A DNA stretch of 24,236 nt from Sandaracinaceae bacterium. GTDB taxonomy: Bacteria > Myxococcota_A > Polyangia > Polyangiales > Sandaracinaceae. The stretch is from NCBI GenBank assembly GCA_044220955.1, contig JBGAQA010000095.1, forward strand, positions 1 to 24,236. Direction: 5' to 3'. The translations under genes were made by a program, and so were the position numbers. Shown piece after piece: positions 2,648 to 19,399 of the stretch. The notes beneath the pieces were generated by a model. That model was given only the letters and a program-made list of their open reading frames with translations, had not been told where the DNA came from and made no database searches. Position 1 is the first letter of the stretch, and each line of letters starts with the position of its first letter.

Positions 2648-2886
2648 GGTGCGGGATGATACGCCGGGAGGTGCGGCCGCCGGAACCCGCACCGTACGAC
2701 ATCGGCGTCGGGCACCGGCTCGCGCGACGGCAGCGCGGGGCTGCGCCGCTACGTCGGGCGGTCGCGGACCGCGCGTCGTACGTGAGCGCTCGAGTCCGGC
2801 CCGAGCAACACGCAGCCCGATCGCGACGGGCGGACGTGCCACCGTCCTCCGCGCGCAGCCAGCCCTACGTGCGCTACACTGAAGGC

Positions 2887-3435
2887 GTGCGCGCCCCCTC
2901 GTCCGCCATTCGCCCGCTCAAGCGCGTCGAGTACGAGCGGCTCGTCGCGACCGGGGCATTCGAGCACGAGCGCGTCGAGCTTCTCGACGGAATGGTGATG
3001 CAGATGCCGCCTCACGGCCCCGAGCACGACGGGACGATCGAGATCGTGAGCCGGTTGCTGTCGACGGCTCTCGGCGCGCGCGCGTCGGTGCGCGTTCAGT
3101 CCGCGTTCGCGGCGACCGGCGACGGCGAGCCGGAGCCCGATCTCGCCGTCGTCCCCGTGGGCGACTACCGCGACGCGCACCCGTCCAAAGCGTTCCTCAT
3201 CATCGAGGTTGCGGTCTCGTCCATCGCCTACGATCGGGACAAGGCGTCGACGTACGCGCGCGCGGGTGTCCCCGAGTACTGGATCATCGACGTGCCGCGT
3301 GGTGTCGTCGAAGTGCACCTCGCACCTTCCGAAGGCGCCTACGAACAGCGGACCACGCATCGCCGCCCCGAGACGCTGCGGCCTGGGGCTTTTCCGGATG
3401 TCCCCGTGCCGCTCGATCGTGTGCTCCGCGGGTAG
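2887..3435 (+). CDS. Uma2-family (DUF820) PD-(D/E)XK endonuclease-like protein
   Basis: RVELLDG, EPEPDLAVV, LIIEVAVSS, DKASTYARAGVPEYWIID are the Uma2 signature. GTG start 6 nt after TACACT. Confidence 0.92.
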   Translation: MRAPSSAIRPLKRVEYERLVATGAFEHERVELLDGMVMQMPPHGPEHDGTIEIVSRLLSTALGARASVRVQSAFAATGDGEPEPDLAVVPVGDYRDAHPSKAFLIIEVAVSSIAYDRDKASTYARAGVPEYWIIDVPRGVVEVHLAPSEGAYEQRTTHRRPETLRPGAFPDVPVPLDRVLRG

Positions 3436-12697: not shown

Positions 12698-14107
12698 ATG
12701 CTGCGGAGCCTCCCGCTGCGGGTGTTCGTGCTGATGTGCATCGCGATCGCCCTCGTGATCGGCGCGACGTGGCTCTACCTCGATGCGGCGCACGCGGAGC
12801 GCGCGGCTGGGGTCCTCGAGGGCGCCGCCGTGCTCGCGGTGCTCTTCGCGGCAGGCATCGCGGTGCTGCTCTCGCGCTGGGTCAGCTCGCCCCTCGGCGA
12901 GATGGCGGGTTCGGCCGATCGCCTGGCGTCCGGCGATCTCTCGGTGCGCACGCGCGCCCGGCGCGACGACGAGATCGGGGCGCTCGGGCGCGCGCTCGAC
13001 CGCATGGCCGACCAGCTCGAGGATCGCTTCGCCCGGGTCCGCGAGGAAGAGGCGCGCCTGCGCGCGATGCTGGACGCGATGGTCGAGGCCGTGCTCGTCG
13101 CCGATCGGGAGGGCCGCGTCGTCCTCTCGAACGCGGCGTTCAACAAGCTGGCCGAGGCCGATCCGATCGGACGCCGGGTGATCGAGGCGCTGCGCAGCCC
13201 GGAGCTGCACGAGGCCGTCGAGCGCGCGATCGCCGGCCAGGGCGGCCGTGTCCAGGTGGAGCTGGCGACCTCGCGCGTTCCTCGCACGCTGCGCGCCACG
13301 GTGTCGCCCTTGGCCGAGACGCGCGGCGCGATCGCCGTGCTGCACGACGTGACCGAGCTCGAGCGCGCGAACTCCATCCGCCGCGACTTCGTCGCCAACG
13401 CGAGCCACGAGCTGCGGACGCCGCTGACCTCGATTCGAGGCTTCGCCGAGACACTGCAGGGCGGCGCGCTCGACGACCCGAAGATCGCACGACGCTTCGT
13501 GTCGAGCATCGTCGAGAACTCCGTGCGTCTCTCGCGGCTCGTCGACGATCTGCTCGAGCTCTCGCGCTCCGAGTCGCCGAACGTCGACTACGAGCTCGAG
13601 CCGGTCTCCATCGGCGAGGTCGCGGCGAAGGTGCTTCGATCGCTGGAGTCGCAGGCGCTCGACAAGAAGATCACGCTCGTCCTCGAGCAGCCGGACGGCG
13701 AGGTCTGGGCGCGGGCCGAGCTGCGCGCTCTCGAGCACGTCGTGGTCAACCTCGTGGACAACGGAATCAAGTACACGCCCGCGGGCGGCCGCGTCGTGGC
13801 GCGCGCATCGAAGCAGGGCGGGAGCGCGGTGCTCGAGGTCGAGGACACCGGGCAGGGCATCGGGGCCGAGCACCTGCCGCGCATCTTCGAGCGCTTCTAT
13901 CGCGTCGACCCCGGACGCGCGCGGGAGCAAGGCGGCTCCGGCCTCGGCCTCGCGATCGTGAAGCACCTCGTGCTGAAGATGGGCGGCGAGATCAGCGTGC
14001 GGAGCCGCATGCGCGAGGGCACGACGTTCCGAGTGGAGCTCCCGCAGGTGGTCCCCGAGGCCGATGGAGACGAGGGGTCGGACGCGCTACCCTCCTCGCG
14101 GGGTTGA
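12698..14107 (+). CDS. PhoR-like sensor histidine kinase (2 TM, HAMP, PAS, HisKA, HATPase)
   Basis: HAMP DEIGALGRALDRMA, H-box DFVANASHELRTPLT, NLVDNGIKYT, DTGQGI, IFERFYRVD, GSGLGLAIVKH. ATG 12698 lies 10 nt after TATAGT. Confidence 0.93.
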   Translation: MLRSLPLRVFVLMCIAIALVIGATWLYLDAAHAERAAGVLEGAAVLAVLFAAGIAVLLSRWVSSPLGEMAGSADRLASGDLSVRTRARRDDEIGALGRALDRMADQLEDRFARVREEEARLRAMLDAMVEAVLVADREGRVVLSNAAFNKLAEADPIGRRVIEALRSPELHEAVERAIAGQGGRVQVELATSRVPRTLRATVSPLAETRGAIAVLHDVTELERANSIRRDFVANASHELRTPLTSIRGFAETLQGGALDDPKIARRFVSSIVENSVRLSRLVDDLLELSRSESPNVDYELEPVSIGEVAAKVLRSLESQALDKKITLVLEQPDGEVWARAELRALEHVVVNLVDNGIKYTPAGGRVVARASKQGGSAVLEVEDTGQGIGAEHLPRIFERFYRVDPGRAREQGGSGLGLAIVKHLVLKMGGEISVRSRMREGTTFRVELPQVVPEADGDEGSDALPSSRG

Positions 14108-14706
14108 TGGGCGCGCGCGAGACGGCGGAGATCGACGCGGCGCTGCCGAGCGTCACGGCGTACGTGCGCGGCCTGCCCGCGGGCTGGTCGTCTTATCCGG
14201 AGTGCGCCGCACGCGGCAGGCTCCTGGGGTCACTGGCGGTCACGGGCGCGCTCGACGGGCTCGAGGGCCTGCCGGACGCGCTCGCGCGCCACCTCCCGAC
14301 GCTCTCGGCCGGGTGGATCCCCGAGGTGGTGCACGTCGGGCTGATGCTCGCGGTTCGCGATCGCCGCTTCGCCGGCGCGGGCGGAGAGGACGCCTTTCTC
14401 GCGTGGTTGCACCGCCTGAACGGCGCGGTGATGCCGGAGCGCAGCGACCCACGCGCGGCCGTCCTGGAGCTCCCGACGATCTGGTCGAGCCTGCACACTG
14501 GCACCGTCCTCGAGGTCCGCGAGGCGAGCGAGAGCTCCGCGCTCCTCGCGGCACGACACCCCGAGCCGCTCTTTCCTGCGCTGGCGAGCCGCTGGCGCTG
14601 CGACGCCATCGCGGGGCTCCTCGTCCGCAGCGGCGCCGTGCAGCCGCGCGTGACGCAGCACCCCTACGCCGGTGGCGAGACGCTCCTCGCGATCACGTGG
14701 ACGTGA
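14107..14706 (+). CDS. Hypothetical protein, 199 aa
   Basis: ATG overlaps the kinase stop (TGATG). Protein-like composition: LPSVTAYVRGLPAGWSSYPEC...WIPEV...LPTIWSSLHTGT. Confidence 0.7.
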   Translation: MGARETAEIDAALPSVTAYVRGLPAGWSSYPECAARGRLLGSLAVTGALDGLEGLPDALARHLPTLSAGWIPEVVHVGLMLAVRDRRFAGAGGEDAFLAWLHRLNGAVMPERSDPRAAVLELPTIWSSLHTGTVLEVREASESSALLAARHPEPLFPALASRWRCDAIAGLLVRSGAVQPRVTQHPYAGGETLLAITWT

Positions 14707-15271
14707 GCGCCTGGGGCGCGCGCGCGCACGAGCAGTCGAGGCACCCGTGCTCGGCGCAGGTTCCGCACGCGCGCGCGACCTGCTCCCGGAGCGCCTTGCG
14801 CGCGCGAAAGAGGCGCACGCCGGCGTTGCTCGCCGAGATGCCGACCGCCTCCGCGTAGTCCTTCACGGCGACGCCGTCGATCTCCACGCGACGCAGCACG
14901 TCCGCGTACTCCGGCTTGAGGGTCGCCGCGAGGTCGGTCACGCAGCGACACGCGACGCGCGTCCACTCCTGGTCGTCTTCCGCATCGGCCATCTCGGCGG
15001 CCAGCTCTTCGAGACGGCGCTCGCTCACGGCGTGACGTCGCTGGTGGTCGATCACGGCGTTGCGGAGCACGCGATAGAACCACCCGAGCACCGACTCTCG
15101 GATGTCGTCGGCATGGTCGAGGCTGCGGACGAAGGCCTCCTGCACGATCTCCTCGGCCGCGGCGCGACTGCCGATCCTCCTCTCCACATAGCGGAGGAAG
15201 TCACGGTGGTTCGCGACGAACGTCTCGAGCACGGCCTTCGACGGGCTCTGGCCCGGGTCTTCTCGGCTCAC
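14693..15271 (-). CDS. CorE-like ECF sigma factor with linker CxC and C-terminal Cys-rich domain, 192 aa
   Basis: Sigma2 region FLRYVERRIGSRAAAEEIVQEAF...WFYRVLRNAVIDHQRR, linker CRC, sigma4 HTH LKPEYADVL...YAEAVGISASNAGVRLFRARKAL, C-terminal CGTCAEHGCLDCSC. GGAGG precedes GTG 15271. Confidence 0.9.
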   Translation of the reverse strand: MSREDPGQSPSKAVLETFVANHRDFLRYVERRIGSRAAAEEIVQEAFVRSLDHADDIRESVLGWFYRVLRNAVIDHQRRHAVSERRLEELAAEMADAEDDQEWTRVACRCVTDLAATLKPEYADVLRRVEIDGVAVKDYAEAVGISASNAGVRLFRARKALREQVARACGTCAEHGCLDCSCARAPQALTST

Positions 15272-15290
15272 GTCGTCCTCCGCTCTCTGC

Positions 15291-15329
15291 GCGAGCGGGG
15301 GGCTCGACCCTTCGGCCGCGCCCCCTCGC
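15291..15329 (-). terminator. GC-rich imperfect hairpin between the Cys-rich peptide and the sigma gene
   Basis: GCGAG(C)GGGGGGCTCGACC-CTTC-GGCCGCGCCCCCTCGC can pair as a long stem. No U tract, so its role is uncertain. Confidence 0.4.
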
Positions 15330-15347
15330 CCGGGCACCACATGACTC

Positions 15348-15515
15348 CTACTTCCTGGTCGCGCAGGCGCAACCGCCGCCGCAGCGGCAGGTCTGCTCGC
15401 ACCTGCAGCTCTCGCCGCAGGTGCATCGCTCGGCCGCCGCGGCGCACCCGCAGCTCGTCTGTGCGCATCGACAGCCACTCGGGCTCGGGCTCGGGCTCTG
15501 CTTCTCGTTGCTCAT
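15348..15515 (-). CDS. Metallothionein-like Cys-rich peptide, 55 aa
   Basis: Manual translation: MSNEKQSPSPSPSGCRCAQTSCGCAAAAERCTCGESCRCEQTCRCGGGCACATRK*. It has 12 Cys in six CxC pairs and no aromatic residues or His. Strong RBS (GAGGAG) precedes the ATG. Below the ORF-track length cutoff. Confidence 0.85.
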   Translation of the reverse strand: MSNEKQSPSPSPSGCRCAQTSCGCAAAAERCTCGESCRCEQTCRCGGGCACATRK

Positions 15516-15564
15516 CGCTTCTCTCCTCGTGAGAGGTCGCGCTCACTCGCGCGCCCTCACCCTC

Positions 15565-15592
15565 ACGACGCAGCGCCCGGCGCTTCATTACA
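15565..15592 (-). promoter_or_regulatory. Putative ECF-sigma promoter TGTAAT-N16-CGTC
   Basis: Minus strand reads TGTAAT gaagcgccgggcgctg CGTCGT just after the oxidase stop and about 50 nt upstream of the peptide ATG. CGT(C) is a common ECF -10 element. Confidence 0.6.
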
Positions 15593-15596
15593 CCGC

Positions 15597-16856
15597 TCAG
15601 CGCACCACCTCGAAGTGCCCCATCATCCCGGCGGCGTGATGCTCGAGGATGTGGCAGTGGTACATCCACGAGCCCGGGCGATCGTCGGGACGGAACGCGA
15701 TGGTGACGGTCTGCCGACCGACCACGTTGACGGTGTCCTCCCACGACGAGGGCGTCGTGGGAACGCCATCGACGGCGACCACCTGGAAGAAGAACCCGTG
15801 CAGGTGGAAGGGGTGATCCATCCCCGTCTCGTTGACGATGTCCCAGACCTGGAGCTCGCCGACCTTGACCGGCGCATCGTGGTGGTGGGTCTCGTCGTTG
15901 ACGAGCCAGTCGTGCCCGTGCAGCGTCATCCGCGCACCGAGGCGGACGGTGCGCGTGCGGACCGGCTCGCCCGTGACGAGCGGCACGACGCGACCCCGCG
16001 CCCGGGGGACCGACGCGCGCGAAGCGGCGCGGGGCCCGACGCGGAGCGAGGCCCACGCCGTGCGGGTGGGCCACTTCATCTTCGAGCGTCGATACGGCAG
16101 CGACTCGATCGGCACGACGCTGCCTTCGTCCTCGAACGGGCCGACGGCCAGCTCGACGCGCTCGCCGGGCGCCAGCAGCTTCTCGAACACGACGGGCGTC
16201 TCGTTGCTCGGACCGCCGCCGCCGCCGACCACGCGGAACGGCCGACCGCCGATCGAGAGCCGCACGTAGCGCGCGCTGCACGCGTTCACGACGCGCCAGC
16301 GCTCGACCTGGCCCGCCGCGATCTCGAGGCGGGGCATCGAGCGCCCGTTCACGAGCGTGACGCCACCCTCACGACCGGCGTGGCGATCGAAGATCGACGT
16401 GGCCGCGATGTGCCCGCGTCCGTCGAGCGACACGTCGTCGAGGACCAGCACGCGATCGGCATCGAAGCCCCGCTCGTCCTCGCCCAGCACCACGAGCGCG
16501 CCGTAGAGGCCCCGCTCCATCTGCACCGTCTCGTTGGCGTGCGAGTGGTACCAGAACGTGCCGGCGTCAGGCAGCTCGAAGCGGTACTCGAACGTCTCCC
16601 CCGGCGCGACCATCCGCTGCGTGCACGCGGTGCCGTCCATCGCGGCGGGCACGCGCAGGCCGTGCCAGTGGATCGACGTCGGCTCGGGCAGGTGGTTGAC
16701 GAGCCTCGCCACGAGCGTGTCACCCACGTGCGCGACGATCAGAGGACCCGGCACGCGGCCCTCGTACCCCCACGCCGGAACGCTCCGGCCTGGCGCGATC
16801 TCCCACGCCATCTCCTTCGCCTCGAGCCGCACGTCGATCTCTCTCGCAGTCCTCAT
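15597..16856 (-). CDS. Multicopper oxidase (three-domain, CueO/CuoB-like), 419 aa
   Basis: All four Cu motifs: HWHG, WYHSH, HPFHLHG, HCHILEHHAAGMM. AGGAGG precedes ATG 16856. Confidence 0.94.
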   Translation of the reverse strand: MRTAREIDVRLEAKEMAWEIAPGRSVPAWGYEGRVPGPLIVAHVGDTLVARLVNHLPEPTSIHWHGLRVPAAMDGTACTQRMVAPGETFEYRFELPDAGTFWYHSHANETVQMERGLYGALVVLGEDERGFDADRVLVLDDVSLDGRGHIAATSIFDRHAGREGGVTLVNGRSMPRLEIAAGQVERWRVVNACSARYVRLSIGGRPFRVVGGGGGPSNETPVVFEKLLAPGERVELAVGPFEDEGSVVPIESLPYRRSKMKWPTRTAWASLRVGPRAASRASVPRARGRVVPLVTGEPVRTRTVRLGARMTLHGHDWLVNDETHHHDAPVKVGELQVWDIVNETGMDHPFHLHGFFFQVVAVDGVPTTPSSWEDTVNVVGRQTVTIAFRPDDRPGSWMYHCHILEHHAAGMMGHFEVVR

Positions 16857-16951
16857 GGTCCCTCCTGCCGGGCCCGTGGCCCGATGACGTCGCCAGTACA
16901 CTTCTTCTTCTTCGTTCTTCTTCGGCGCCCTCGGGAGCACCGCGGGGGCGC

Positions 16952-17650
16952 TCACGCCGCGACGAGCTCGAGGCTCGCGTGCGCCAGCGCCGAGGCGGTC
17001 TTGCGGCCGACGATCGCGGGCGCCTGACGCACCAGCGACTCGTCCTCGAGCGCCGCGACCATGAAGAGCGCGAAGTCGACGCGGCGGGTGCGGTTGCTCG
17101 CGAGGACCGGATCGCCGACGTGTCGGCTCCACACCGGGAGCCCCTCGCTCTCGCCTTCCTCGAGATCGCTCCCGCGAACGACGGTCCAGCGCCTGTCGCT
17201 CTCGAAGATCCGCCTGCACGCCTCGACCTGATCGTCGATCTCGGCGAGGCCGAAGAGACGCACGATCCAGGCGATGATCGGGAGCAGGATGGTGAAGAAC
17301 GCCGAGTAGCGATCCTTCCCGTCGCGGCTGATGTGCCAGCCACAGGAGAAGACGAGGCGCGCGCCCGGCTTCGCGAGGTCGAGGACCGCCTGCGCGGTGC
17401 CCGACGAGTACTGCCGGACGCCCCAGGGCGCCAGGACGACGAGGACGCCGTCGCAGCCGTCGACGGCCTTGCGGATCACCTCGCGGTCATCGGTGCGGCC
17501 GGGGTGGACGGTGATCCGGCCCGCGAAGCGATCGAGCTTCCCGACGCTCTCGGGCCGGCAGACGCCGACCACCTCGTGTCCGCGATCGAGCGCGTGCTCG
17601 ATCATGTACTGGCCCAGCTTCCCCGACGCCCCGACGATGCAGATCTTCAT
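16952..17650 (-). CDS. NAD(P)H-binding Rossmann protein (flavin/biliverdin reductase-like, NAD_binding_10)
   Basis: MKICIVGASGKLG...ALDRGHEVVGVCR, WTVVR, RVDFALFM. GGAGG RBS. Confidence 0.9.
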   Translation of the reverse strand: MKICIVGASGKLGQYMIEHALDRGHEVVGVCRPESVGKLDRFAGRITVHPGRTDDREVIRKAVDGCDGVLVVLAPWGVRQYSSGTAQAVLDLAKPGARLVFSCGWHISRDGKDRYSAFFTILLPIIAWIVRLFGLAEIDDQVEACRRIFESDRRWTVVRGSDLEEGESEGLPVWSRHVGDPVLASNRTRRVDFALFMVAALEDESLVRQAPAIVGRKTASALAHASLELVAA

Positions 17651-17672
17651 GTGCCGTCCTCCGTTCTTCGTG

Positions 17673-17719
17673 GACCTTGGCTCGTCGCGCCGGGGCCCAC
17701 TTGAACGAAGGGGCTACGA
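17673..17719 (-). promoter_or_regulatory. Conserved promoter/operator, copy 1 (upstream of the oxidoreductase)
   Basis: Plus strand GACCTTGG-N18-ACTTGAACGAAGGGGCTACGA; near-identical to the copy at 19432-19478. Confidence 0.7.
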
Positions 17720-18484
17720 CAAGCGGAGCGTCGCGGCGGCAATGCCGAACATGCGGCGAAACGTCCGGCTCAGGTGCGCCGAGTCCGAGAAGCCCGCTTC
17801 GTGCGCGGCCTCGGTGAGCGAGGCGCCGACGGCGAACATCTCGACGGCGCGCACCAGGCGCAACCACAGGAGGAACGTCCGGAACGAGAGCCCCGTCTGC
17901 TCGACGAAGAGGTGTCGCGTCCGTCCCTTCGAGAGGCCCACGACCGCGGCGACCTCGCCGAGGCTCACGGGCTGCTCGAGCCGCGCCGACACCCAGGCGA
18001 TCAGCTTCGCGACGCGCCGGTCGACGCGCGGGGCGCGGACACCCTCGCCGGCCAGTCGGGCGATCAGCTCTCGACCCAGGGCGCGGAGATCCTCGTCGCT
18101 GTGCGCTCGGCGCGCGAACGTGGCGCGCAGGCGCGCGGGGATGTCGCCGAGACGCTCCGCCGGCAGGTGCACGATCGGCCCGTCGGCGAAGAGCGTGCGC
18201 GCGATCTCTCGGCCCGCCTGGCCGTCGGACGCGACGAACAGGTGCGCGACCGTCCCGGTCCCCGCGAACGCGTGCGGCGCGTCGGGCGCGACCGCGAGGT
18301 AGCTGCCGGCGACGCGCCCACGATCGCTCTCGAAGTCCACGCGCCCCGTCAGCGCGAGCGTCACCTGGATCACGTGGTGAGCGTGGACGTCGGTGCGCGG
18401 GTACTGCTCGCCGGCGGGAGCGCTCAGGATCCAGAGGCTCGCGCCCTCCCAGACGAGGATGCGACCGTGCGCCTTGGTCCCCAC
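17714..18484 (-). CDS. AraC-family transcriptional regulator
   Basis: N-terminal cupin HAHHVIQ; C-terminal SLGEVAAVVGLSKGRTRHLF...LTEAAHEAGFSDSAHLSRTFRRMFG. Confidence 0.95.
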   Translation of the reverse strand: MGTKAHGRILVWEGASLWILSAPAGEQYPRTDVHAHHVIQVTLALTGRVDFESDRGRVAGSYLAVAPDAPHAFAGTGTVAHLFVASDGQAGREIARTLFADGPIVHLPAERLGDIPARLRATFARRAHSDEDLRALGRELIARLAGEGVRAPRVDRRVAKLIAWVSARLEQPVSLGEVAAVVGLSKGRTRHLFVEQTGLSFRTFLLWLRLVRAVEMFAVGASLTEAAHEAGFSDSAHLSRTFRRMFGIAAATLRLS

Positions 18485-18535
18485 GCGTCCGAGCTTAGCG
18501 GACGCCTCCGCGACGCGGCCAGTCGAGACCGCCGA

Positions 18536-19399
18536 TCAGATGCCCGCGGTCGCGGGCACAGCCGGCACGACGGGGTCCGCCGGCAGCACGCTCAGGATGA
18601 TCTGCGTCACGTCCTGCGCGCGATCGGTCTCGAGGTTGTGACCCGCTCCCTCGAAGAGCCACTGGTCGCCGTCCTCGGCAGCATCGGCGATTGCGGCGTG
18701 CATCCAGACCCAGAGGTGCTCGCCCGCGGGCGAGAAGCCGTGCGACGTCGCCGTCAGCACGCGGACTGGATACGACCCGAAGCCGCCGGTCGCCGCGAGC
18801 TGCGCCGAGATGCCCCCGAACGCCTCGTACTCGGCGATCTCCACGGGCGGCCGCGAGCGCAGGACGTCGCGCGGGACGATGCAGCCGGTGACGGCGGCGT
18901 GCTCGCACGCGAGGCTGAAGTCGCCGGGGCGCGGCTCGACGAGCACGAGCGCCGCCACCTCCTCGGGATGCGCCCTCGCGAAGAGCTCCAGGTACGTTCC
19001 GCCGAACGAGTGACCCACGAGCACGTACGGCGGCGCGTGGCCGCGCGCGACGAGCAGTGCGCGGAGATCCTCCACGATGTGCGCGCCGTCCCGCGGCTCC
19101 GTGGTCGGATCGCTGCGTCCGTATCCGGGGCGCGAGTACGCGAACACACGCGCGTGGCCGGAGACCTCGCTCGCGACCTGATCCCACGCGCTCCAGTCGT
19201 TTCCCCAGCCGGACTCGAACACCACCGTCGCCTCGCCGCTGCCGGTCTCGACGAGCTCGACGTCGCGGCCGGAGACCTCGGCGACGGTCGGCGTGAGCCG
19301 CGTGCTGCACGCCGTGAGCGTCGCGAGCGTCAGGAGCACCAGCACGCTCGCTGGCAGGAGCCGGCGGGGGTGGGCGCGTCGGATCGTCTGGGTGTTCAT
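18536..19399 (-). CDS. Alpha/beta hydrolase, predicted lipoprotein
   Basis: Lipobox LTAC, VVFESGWG, YSRPGYGRS, nucleophile GHSFGG, GAGH. AGGAG RBS. Confidence 0.9.
   Translation of the reverse strand: MNTQTIRRAHPRRLLPASVLVLLTLATLTACSTRLTPTVAEVSGRDVELVETGSGEATVVFESGWGNDWSAWDQVASEVSGHARVFAYSRPGYGRSDPTTEPRDGAHIVEDLRALLVARGHAPPYVLVGHSFGGTYLELFARAHPEEVAALVLVEPRPGDFSLACEHAAVTGCIVPRDVLRSRPPVEIAEYEAFGGISAQLAATGGFGSYPVRVLTATSHGFSPAGEHLWVWMHAAIADAAEDGDQWLFEGAGHNLETDRAQDVTQIILSVLPADPVVPAVPATAGI

Follow-up and report, generated by a model that had tools for sequence, protein, structure and literature searches.

A conserved six-CxC gene family paired with CorE-type sigma factors: candidate His-free bacterial metallothioneins

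Does the short interval between a multicopper oxidase gene and the gene for a CorE-like ECF sigma factor, on a 24,236-nucleotide contig from a Sandaracinaceae bacterium (the whole of which is referred to here as the window), encode a metallothionein of a kind not yet described in bacteria? The question was raised by a sequence-only reading of the window, which picked out in this interval a 55-residue open reading frame, missed by the annotation track and led by a strong ribosome-binding site, and proposed it as a possibly undescribed myxobacterial metallothionein family. Three matters have to be settled in turn, namely whether the frame is a gene, which of its neighbors it belongs with, and what the encoded peptide is likely to do.

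A conserved gene family overlooked by annotation

The frame and its ribosome site are there as described (Table 1). Read on the minus strand, the interval runs from ATG to TAG, with GAGGAG 7 nt before the start, while the plus strand over the same positions yields only an unrelated Ala/Arg string. The peptide (5.6 kDa, 21.8% Cys) places all 12 of its cysteines in six CxC pairs with spacings of 4-6-3-3-3, the last four pairs being regularly three residues apart as had been noted, and it contains no His, Phe, Trp, or Tyr; its GRAVY value is -0.53 and it has no hydrophobic signal stretch. GC content by codon position is 0.46/0.79/0.89, a coding-type third-position bias in a source genome (G000) of 7.5 Mb and 72.5% GC, and the sequence AGGAGA is invariant in all four aligned regions upstream of such genes.

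Table 1. Features of the peptide-sigma region in the window and the basis on which each was assigned
Feature	Position	Strand	Basis
CorE-like ECF sigma factor, 192 aa, linker CxC + C-terminal C-x2-C-A-x3-C-x2-C-x-C	14693..15271	minus	Pfam (Sigma70_r2, r4_2), sequence, 80-orthologue motif table
GC-rich hairpin just after the peptide stop; possible stabilizer or attenuator before the sigma gene	15292..15332	minus	RNAfold
Six-CxC metallothionein-like gene, 55 aa, ATG to TAG	15348..15515	minus	ORF reading, codon GC, homologues in G001/G003/G022, invariant Cys
Shine-Dalgarno GAGGAG, 7 nt before the ATG of the peptide gene	15523..15528	minus	Sequence
Conserved 6-bp hairpin in the predicted 5' UTR of the peptide gene	15537..15554	minus	Covariation over 24 six-CxC loci
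Predicted ECF promoter: -35 TGTAAT (15587-15592), 16-nt spacer, -10 CGTC (15567-15570)	15567..15592	minus	Motif counts, shuffles, weight matrix
Multicopper oxidase, 419 aa; neighbor, probably outside the unit	15597..16856	minus	Pfam Cu-oxidase_1/2/3

A count of CxC pairs is not by itself unique in this genome, since 3 of the 150,383 stop-to-stop segments in its six frames carry at least six of them within 45 residues, the other two being irregular Pro/Arg/Ser-rich strings. It is conservation that settles the matter. Clear homologues occur in three of 40 related genomes (G001, G003, and G022; E 7e-20 to 4e-10, with the remaining matches, at E above 0.004, left aside), and in a 12-member alignment, A3, every one of the 12 cysteines is invariant against a mean column identity of 53%, the N-terminal stretch varying over 6–14 residues. 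Because the cysteine pattern is conserved, the CxC count alone being insufficient, we accept the peptide gene as real. Two further sources are uninformative: an AlphaFold2 model built without metal has a pLDDT of 47 and a pTM of 0.20, and the public sequencing runs X1 (RNA) and X2 are present only as small contig pieces, depth over the gene being zero in X1.

The family extends well beyond these genomes. A profile built from A3 retrieves 37 proteins from a 90% library, of which the 11 that carry names are all called “hypothetical protein,” and 54 from a 50% library. Among 76 distinct database hits, 57 show the full six-CxC pattern in proteins of about 50 residues, and the cores of these 57 consist of 32% Cys and 0.1% His, without aromatic residues. 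The spacing 4-7-3-3-3 is common to 36 of 55 twelve-Cys cores; the family as a whole obeys 4-(5 to 9)-3-3-3, strictly with six CxC pairs and with no CC or CxxC. A single-sequence search of 5.8 billion proteins gave no candidate, while the alignment-based profile did find relatives, and an exact look-up among 15 billion proteins returned none of ten peptides read from contigs, so that gene callers must often miss the family. In the window the likely reason is that a longer, GTG-started form of the sigma frame (to 15478) overlaps the peptide gene in another frame.

The six-CxC type is found mainly in records titled Myxococcota, and its distribution is patchy: a phylum-wide sample with 16 candidates scored per genome found it in 3 of 401 genomes, and a family-level search in 4 of 32, G000 being included in both counts. 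These figures come from targeted searches as opposed to a census of whole collections, and both the size of the family and the fraction of members that lack a sigma neighbor are to be read as lower bounds.

The family fits no existing model. The peptide itself matches nothing in Pfam or NCBIfam, and none of 26 members reaches a family cut-off in either; the best Pfam scores, both below the curated cut-off, are to the plant models Metallothio_PEC (E 0.2) and Metallothio_2 (E 0.69), for one member each, and no prokaryotic metallothionein model is matched at E up to 1. Profile matches in the PDB are all metallothioneins, at weak E values of 0.021–2.1, while in the ESM Atlas unnamed clusters come first (0.88–0.89) and metallothionein clusters after them (0.75–0.82), which is a lead only. 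The likeness to known metallothioneins is thus not significant and may reflect cysteine richness alone. An unmodelled, unannotated, and conserved CxC family had been foreseen by the sequence-only reading and is what was found; a restriction of the peptide-sigma pairing to myxobacteria did not stand, since records of Acidobacteriota, Gemmatimonadota, and Eisenbacteria carry other CxC-rich peptides at the same genomic position.

A CorE-type sigma factor as the conserved partner

The peptide gene had been placed between a multicopper oxidase and a CorE-like sigma factor, and although both neighbors are where they were said to be, only the sigma proves to be a conserved partner. In the window its gene lies downstream of the peptide gene on the same strand. 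From 292 genome loci encoding relatives of this sigma, the best 80 were taken and searched for ATG-started frames of 20–90 residues with a ribosome site, at least six Cys, 15% Cys, and three CxC. Such a frame lies within 500 bp of the sigma in 21 of the 80 loci (77.7 kb scanned), as against none in the other 356.5 kb, and a 22nd locus (L054) failed the ribosome-site rule only. The two genes stay within about 350 bp of one another through four orientations (four upstream on the same strand, 13 divergent, one downstream, and three convergent). Eight of the 21 peptides are of the six-CxC type, six from Myxococcota-labelled records and two from records of an “uncultured proteobacterium”; the other 13 are different CxC-rich peptides, of which most come from Acidobacteriota and one each from Gemmatimonadota, Eisenbacteria, and Nannocystaceae.

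The pairing also holds when the peptide is the bait. A search seeded with a 4-member alignment (the 12-member one was too variable), which leans to close relatives, recovered 29 metagenome loci; two at contig edges gave no frame, and removal of duplicates left 21, of which 15 have the sigma 25–151 bp away. Where each flank extends for 700 bp or more, the count is 7 of 10. The six without a nearby sigma include three with one flank of 225 bp or less, and in locus L101 the peptide is present with no sigma within 1.5 kb. Pfam matches for 104 flanking frames at 22 loci, chosen by a codon-bias filter within about 3 kb, reveal no other recurrent neighbor beside the pair and no shared anti-sigma-like neighbor; in the supplement of an ECF survey, CorE-like sigmas likewise appear without a known anti-sigma (PMC7826278).

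The sigma has both the sigma2 and the sigma4 domain, and it is the only protein of the CorE-like kind in G000 at E<1e-8. Its features are those of CorE (PMC8999054, in the text available): a CxC in the linker, present in 80 of 80 orthologues, and a cysteine-rich C-terminal domain whose residues match CorE positions 181, 184, 189, 192, and 194. At the position corresponding to residue 185 stands an alanine, directly after the second tail cysteine, and the same holds for 79 of the 80 orthologues, the remaining one being truncated. This residue bears on metal specificity. In the portions of the CorE2 study at hand, the linker CxC is essential, a cysteine at this tail position makes CorE2 a Cd/Zn sensor, alanine shifts CorE2 from Cd to Cu, and the CorE A185C variant answers both metals (PMC4937300). 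The window sigma has the copper-type (CorE) arrangement and, by analogy, most likely senses copper.

The oxidase was considered as a core partner and rejected, as it is not recurrent, lacks the promoter motif upstream (see below), and is represented by a close homologue or remnant at only a few loci: L002 and L127 retain C-terminal remnants of 66 and 33 aa, respectively, and the copy in L024 is frameshifted. It lies upstream of the peptide gene and retains its copper-site motifs, with no twin-Arg in its first 40 residues and no obvious signal stretch at the ATG used; either it is a cytoplasmic enzyme or the wrong start has been called. Farther upstream on the same strand (16952–18484) are an AraC-family regulator and an NAD(P)H-binding protein, perhaps the operon to which it really belongs.

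Promoter motif, predicted leader hairpin, and the place of export genes

The best clues to the function of the peptide are a promoter motif and a hairpin in the predicted leader, neither of which the sequence-only reading had picked out. The first four upstream regions share TGTAAT and CGTC separated by 15–16 nt. Across the 80 sigma loci, TGTAA[T/G/C]-N16-CGTC occurs 74 times, as against 0–4 times at each other spacer length from 10 to 23, and 20 of the 74 copies face a peptide gene, whatever the orientation of the sigma. Only 8 of 20 metagenome loci have the strict motif, and the misses read CGTT at the -10 position. With the -10 relaxed to CGT[C/T], a change made after the data had been seen and for a motif derived from these same loci, the motif lies no more than 140 nt from the start in 43 of 45 distinct peptide loci, compared with 4 of 13,500 shuffles; a 15-nt spacer or a degenerate -35 marks the two loci that depart from it. 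Scored over G000, a weight matrix built from 73 sites places the site before the peptide gene first, at 26.7 bits against 17.7 for the next, and a scan with the same matrix does not find the motif before the oxidase or before CopA-, CopZ-, and cupredoxin-like genes. Over 13900–18600, a search gave neither a sigma-70 promoter nor a U-tract terminator.

Four weaker sites of the form TGTAAGG-N15-CGT[C/T] are also present in G000 (C246:71788 and 76044, C260:23342, C33:20584). The C246 pair flanks another ECF-like gene, and the sites may belong to a different sigma.

What lies behind the other 54 motif copies is informative as to the regulon. Sixteen of 23 hand-picked frames there have HMA, HMBD, YHS, P-type ATPase, cupredoxin, or outer-membrane efflux domains, multicopper oxidase matches are found at several of these loci, and no arsenic family is represented among the 23. 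The gene types correspond to those that CorE controls, a multicopper oxidase, P1B-ATPases, an efflux protein, and an HMA protein, in the accessible part of the original report (PMC3107203). That text describes a CorE promoter built on AAC at -35 and G at -10, 16–18 nt apart, whereas the -35 of the present motif mostly ends in AAT or AAG, with C in 4 of 73 sites, and the two are related at best. The supplement of the family-wide survey describes ECF238 promoters as not conserved and gene context as conserved in one subgroup only (PMC7826278); the motif offers a concrete candidate promoter for CorE-type sigmas.

Between this predicted promoter and the ribosome site lies the conserved 6-bp hairpin. 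Over 24 six-CxC loci, 91.6% of its cells are paired and five of the six pairs have changed on both sides; none of 500 shuffles scores as high and slid controls score lower, for a structure that was derived from the same alignment. Such a hairpin fits a transcribed leader, in which it may have a role. The second, GC-rich hairpin was predicted by RNAfold, run without a shuffle control on the 77 nt that follow the stop codon, both in the window and at 25 related loci.

Peptides and export genes tend not to occur together beside this sigma. A metal-export or chaperone gene is found no farther than about 3 kb from it at 1 of 22 peptide loci and at 41 of 58 others and, for loci of at least 6 kb, at 1 of 18 and 33 of 42, counts that treat kin as separate observations of a pattern that is clustered on the tree. 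In a quick sigma tree, the window sigma belongs to a six-CxC group of six members (support 96), and ten acidobacterial peptide loci cluster apart from it (97), a topology that leaves room for a single origin of the myxobacterial and acidobacterial peptide groups. The near-exclusion suggests that, functionally, the peptide stands in for the export genes.

The acidobacterial peptides have their own pattern, CxC-x2-CxCxC-x4-CxC-x4-CxCxC, and lie divergent from the same kind of sigma with the same promoter motif (L072, L078, L079, L082, L084, L087, and L088; about 2710–2900, minus strand). They have 46 further database hits, hypothetical where named, and with an hhalign probability of 27% they are not clearly homologous to the six-CxC type.

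A proposed metal-buffering cassette and its alternatives

What, then, would such a pair of genes do? That the peptide works as a metallothionein, for whatever soft metal, we regard on the strength of its composition and context as highly probable. We also lean, with less assurance, to a more specific reading, a two-gene metal-buffering cassette in which a copper-sensing CorE-type sigma turns on the peptide, a His-free metallothionein likely for Cu(I). The sigma would bind metal, most likely copper, through its cysteine tail and linker CxC, as extrapolated from CorE and CorE2, and would then transcribe from TGTAAT-N16-CGTC a short leadered mRNA for the peptide. The peptide, once made, would enclose soft metal ions, of which Cu(I) is the probable one, in a thiolate cluster made of cysteines alone, and by lowering free metal it may switch the sigma off again. 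In G000, where the sigma gene is on the same strand, it may be read through from the peptide promoter past the GC-rich hairpin; such self-activation is not general, because in 16 divergent or convergent loci the peptide promoter cannot drive the sigma.

The same cassette might instead serve Cd(II), Zn(II), Hg(II), Ag(I), or As(III). Sites made of thiolates alone bind many soft ions, and the closest solved sequences, by weak matches, are snail metallothioneins, one of them titled as a cadmium-metallothionein. The responses of CorE2 to Cd/Zn and of CorE A185C to both metals, in the available text of PMC4937300, further point to a specificity that is labile. Against this stand the copper-type tail in 79 of 80 sigmas and the other targets of the motif, which include cupredoxins, HMA/YHS P-type ATPases, and efflux proteins and no arsenic family among 23 frames, such that we consider a metal other than copper unlikely.

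Another possibility is that the peptide is a dedicated partner of the sigma, either a metal chaperone or a soluble redox- or metal-sensing modulator that loads, strips, or inhibits it. The close and exclusive pairing in four orientations would suit such a role, as would the status of the peptide as the only strong target of the motif in G000 and the lack of a known anti-sigma for CorE-like sigmas in the PMC7826278 supplement. One protein, P0066, even joins a degenerate six-CxC peptide to the first half of a CorE-like sigma, by deletion, frameshift, or assembly artefact. However, 58 of the 80 orthologous sigmas lack such a peptide nearby, the peptide types differ between clades (the 27% of the hhalign comparison), almost nothing but cysteine is conserved, so that scant surface for specific binding remains, and the peptide sits where other effector genes sit. 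We judge this role improbable.

Copper-induced, Cys-derived RiPPs exist, and a short, cysteine-rich peptide with a variable N-terminal stretch of 6–14 residues invites the thought that it is the precursor of a modified or disulfide-bonded product (a RiPP metallophore or a defensin-like peptide) matured or exported by other genes. Among the 104 flanking frames at 22 loci, though, Pfam finds no radical SAM, YcaO, DUF692, or lanthipeptide family and no shared transporter family, and the hydrophilic peptide lacks a signal stretch, which makes a precursor very unlikely. Finally, that there is no protein gene here, only an off-frame by-product of GC-rich DNA or a non-coding RNA, is barely credible: off-frame CxC-rich strings do occur in G000, the ten look-ups did come back empty, and 8 of the 12 changed core codons between the window and L002 are non-synonymous, but the four synonymous changes all keep Cys, distant loci share the start, ribosome site, stop, length, and every cysteine, their indels keeping the frame, and 76 relatives have been predicted elsewhere by gene callers.

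Returning to the metallothionein reading, the peptide has the sequence attributes of that class, being of low mass and rich in Cys in CxC pairs, without aromatics, and with cysteine positions conserved across homologues. The nearest comparison in composition is to the eukaryotic all-Cys metallothioneins (snail 5ML1, 5MN3, and 6QK5; wheat Ec-1; mammalian MT2), likewise small and cysteine-rich, with CxC repeats and almost no His or aromatics. Whole metazoan metallothioneins are given as 31.65% Cys and 0.15% His in the part of PMC11705764 consulted, close to the values for the six-CxC cores, and the pure-CxC, eukaryote-like character proposed for the peptide is supported in this respect. In contrast to those proteins, the six-CxC family is bacterial, keeps its own strict spacing, and has its own predicted ECF-type promoter.

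Bacterial types named in the sections available of PMC7387436, PMC7558416, and PMC12193353 are SmtA/BmtA, PmtA, and MymT. SmtA/BmtA and PmtA of Pseudomonas are likewise bacterial, about 55 residues long, and cysteine-rich, and SmtA adjoins its own sensor, SmtB, as excerpts of PMC7387436 describe. These proteins have Cys9His-type clusters in a zinc-finger fold and are under a repressor (PMC7387436 and PMC7558416, in part), whereas the six-CxC peptide has no His or aromatic residue, matches no model of their family, and is putatively under an activating sigma. MymT of Mycobacterium tuberculosis, about 5 kDa and Cu(I)-binding, was at first also an unannotated small frame, on the available text of PMC7558416. 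By analogy it is the closest functional precedent for the six-CxC peptide, although it gives no family match and comes from a different phylum. Its cysteine pattern and its repressor control differ as well.

The sigma, for its part, has the linker CxC and the tail in common with CorE and CorE2 of Myxococcus xanthus (formerly ECF44, now in or beside ECF238), and its orthologues, too, have P1B-ATPase, HMA, efflux, and oxidase genes nearby. Among the known targets of CorE/CorE2 are pumps, an oxidase, a chaperone, and a Kelch/glyoxal oxidase protein, whereas here a peptide seems to take the place of export genes. A search for the word “metallothionein” gives 0 occurrences in the main texts of PMC3107203 (CorE), PMC4937300 (CorE2), and PMC6851896 (a 2019 review) and in the available part of the PMC7826278 supplement. 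The environmental candidates in the portion of PMC11705764 at hand are His-rich (10.6% Cys, 13.3% His), unlike the six-CxC family, and four family words are absent from four text supplements of that paper. The titles and abstract openings searched, with few subscription papers among them, hold no description of the six-CxC family or of its pairing with a sigma.

Judging from the sequences, then, the six-CxC family is very probably a His-free bacterial metallothionein and a target of a CorE-type sigma. Reviews, in the parts available, describe bacterial metallothioneins as rare and His-preferring, with function studied essentially for SmtA, MymT, and the Pseudomonas proteins (PMC11705764, PMC7387436, PMC7558416). 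If the assignment is correct, the family would be a new bacterial class with metazoan-like cysteine content and would bring a new regulatory logic, activation by a metal-sensing sigma instead of release by a repressor. A two-gene cassette of less than 1 kb could also serve as a model of thiolate-cluster evolution and possibly as a biosensor or metal-capture part.

A broader reading can be offered tentatively. CorE-type sigmas may use one promoter for two alternative copper programs: most lineages would express an export regulon (CopA/CopZ/efflux), others a one-peptide “sponge.” At least two unrelated metallothionein families, both His-free and eukaryote-like, would have come to serve as that sponge (the six-CxC family in myxobacteria, the CxCxC type in Acidobacteriota), and the peptide would close the feedback by competing with the cysteine tail of the sigma or by directly stripping metal from it. 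We hold this to be possible and rather doubtful; were it true, bacterial metallothioneins would be more common than has been assumed, and gene callers would simply have overlooked them.

Several smaller observations concern related loci. Very short versions of the peptide, with 24–29 residues and 7–10 Cys and under the same motif, are seen at L063:2878-2952, L068:2822-2911, and L069:2884-2964. The smallest copper metallothioneins of fungi are of this size. In L025, a minus-strand frame (2391–2654) lying about 70 bp beyond the peptide gene, on its downstream side, shows a partial match to phytochelatin synthase (E 8e-9 over 45 residues), which may be a second hint of thiol chelation at that one locus. 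In three of the acidobacterial peptide loci, a second motif copy precedes a protein of about 190–200 residues with a signal-like start (L078:3624-4202, L082:3627-4250, L088:3573-4154), the L088 protein having a weak DUF4177 match, and this protein is a possible further member of the regulon.
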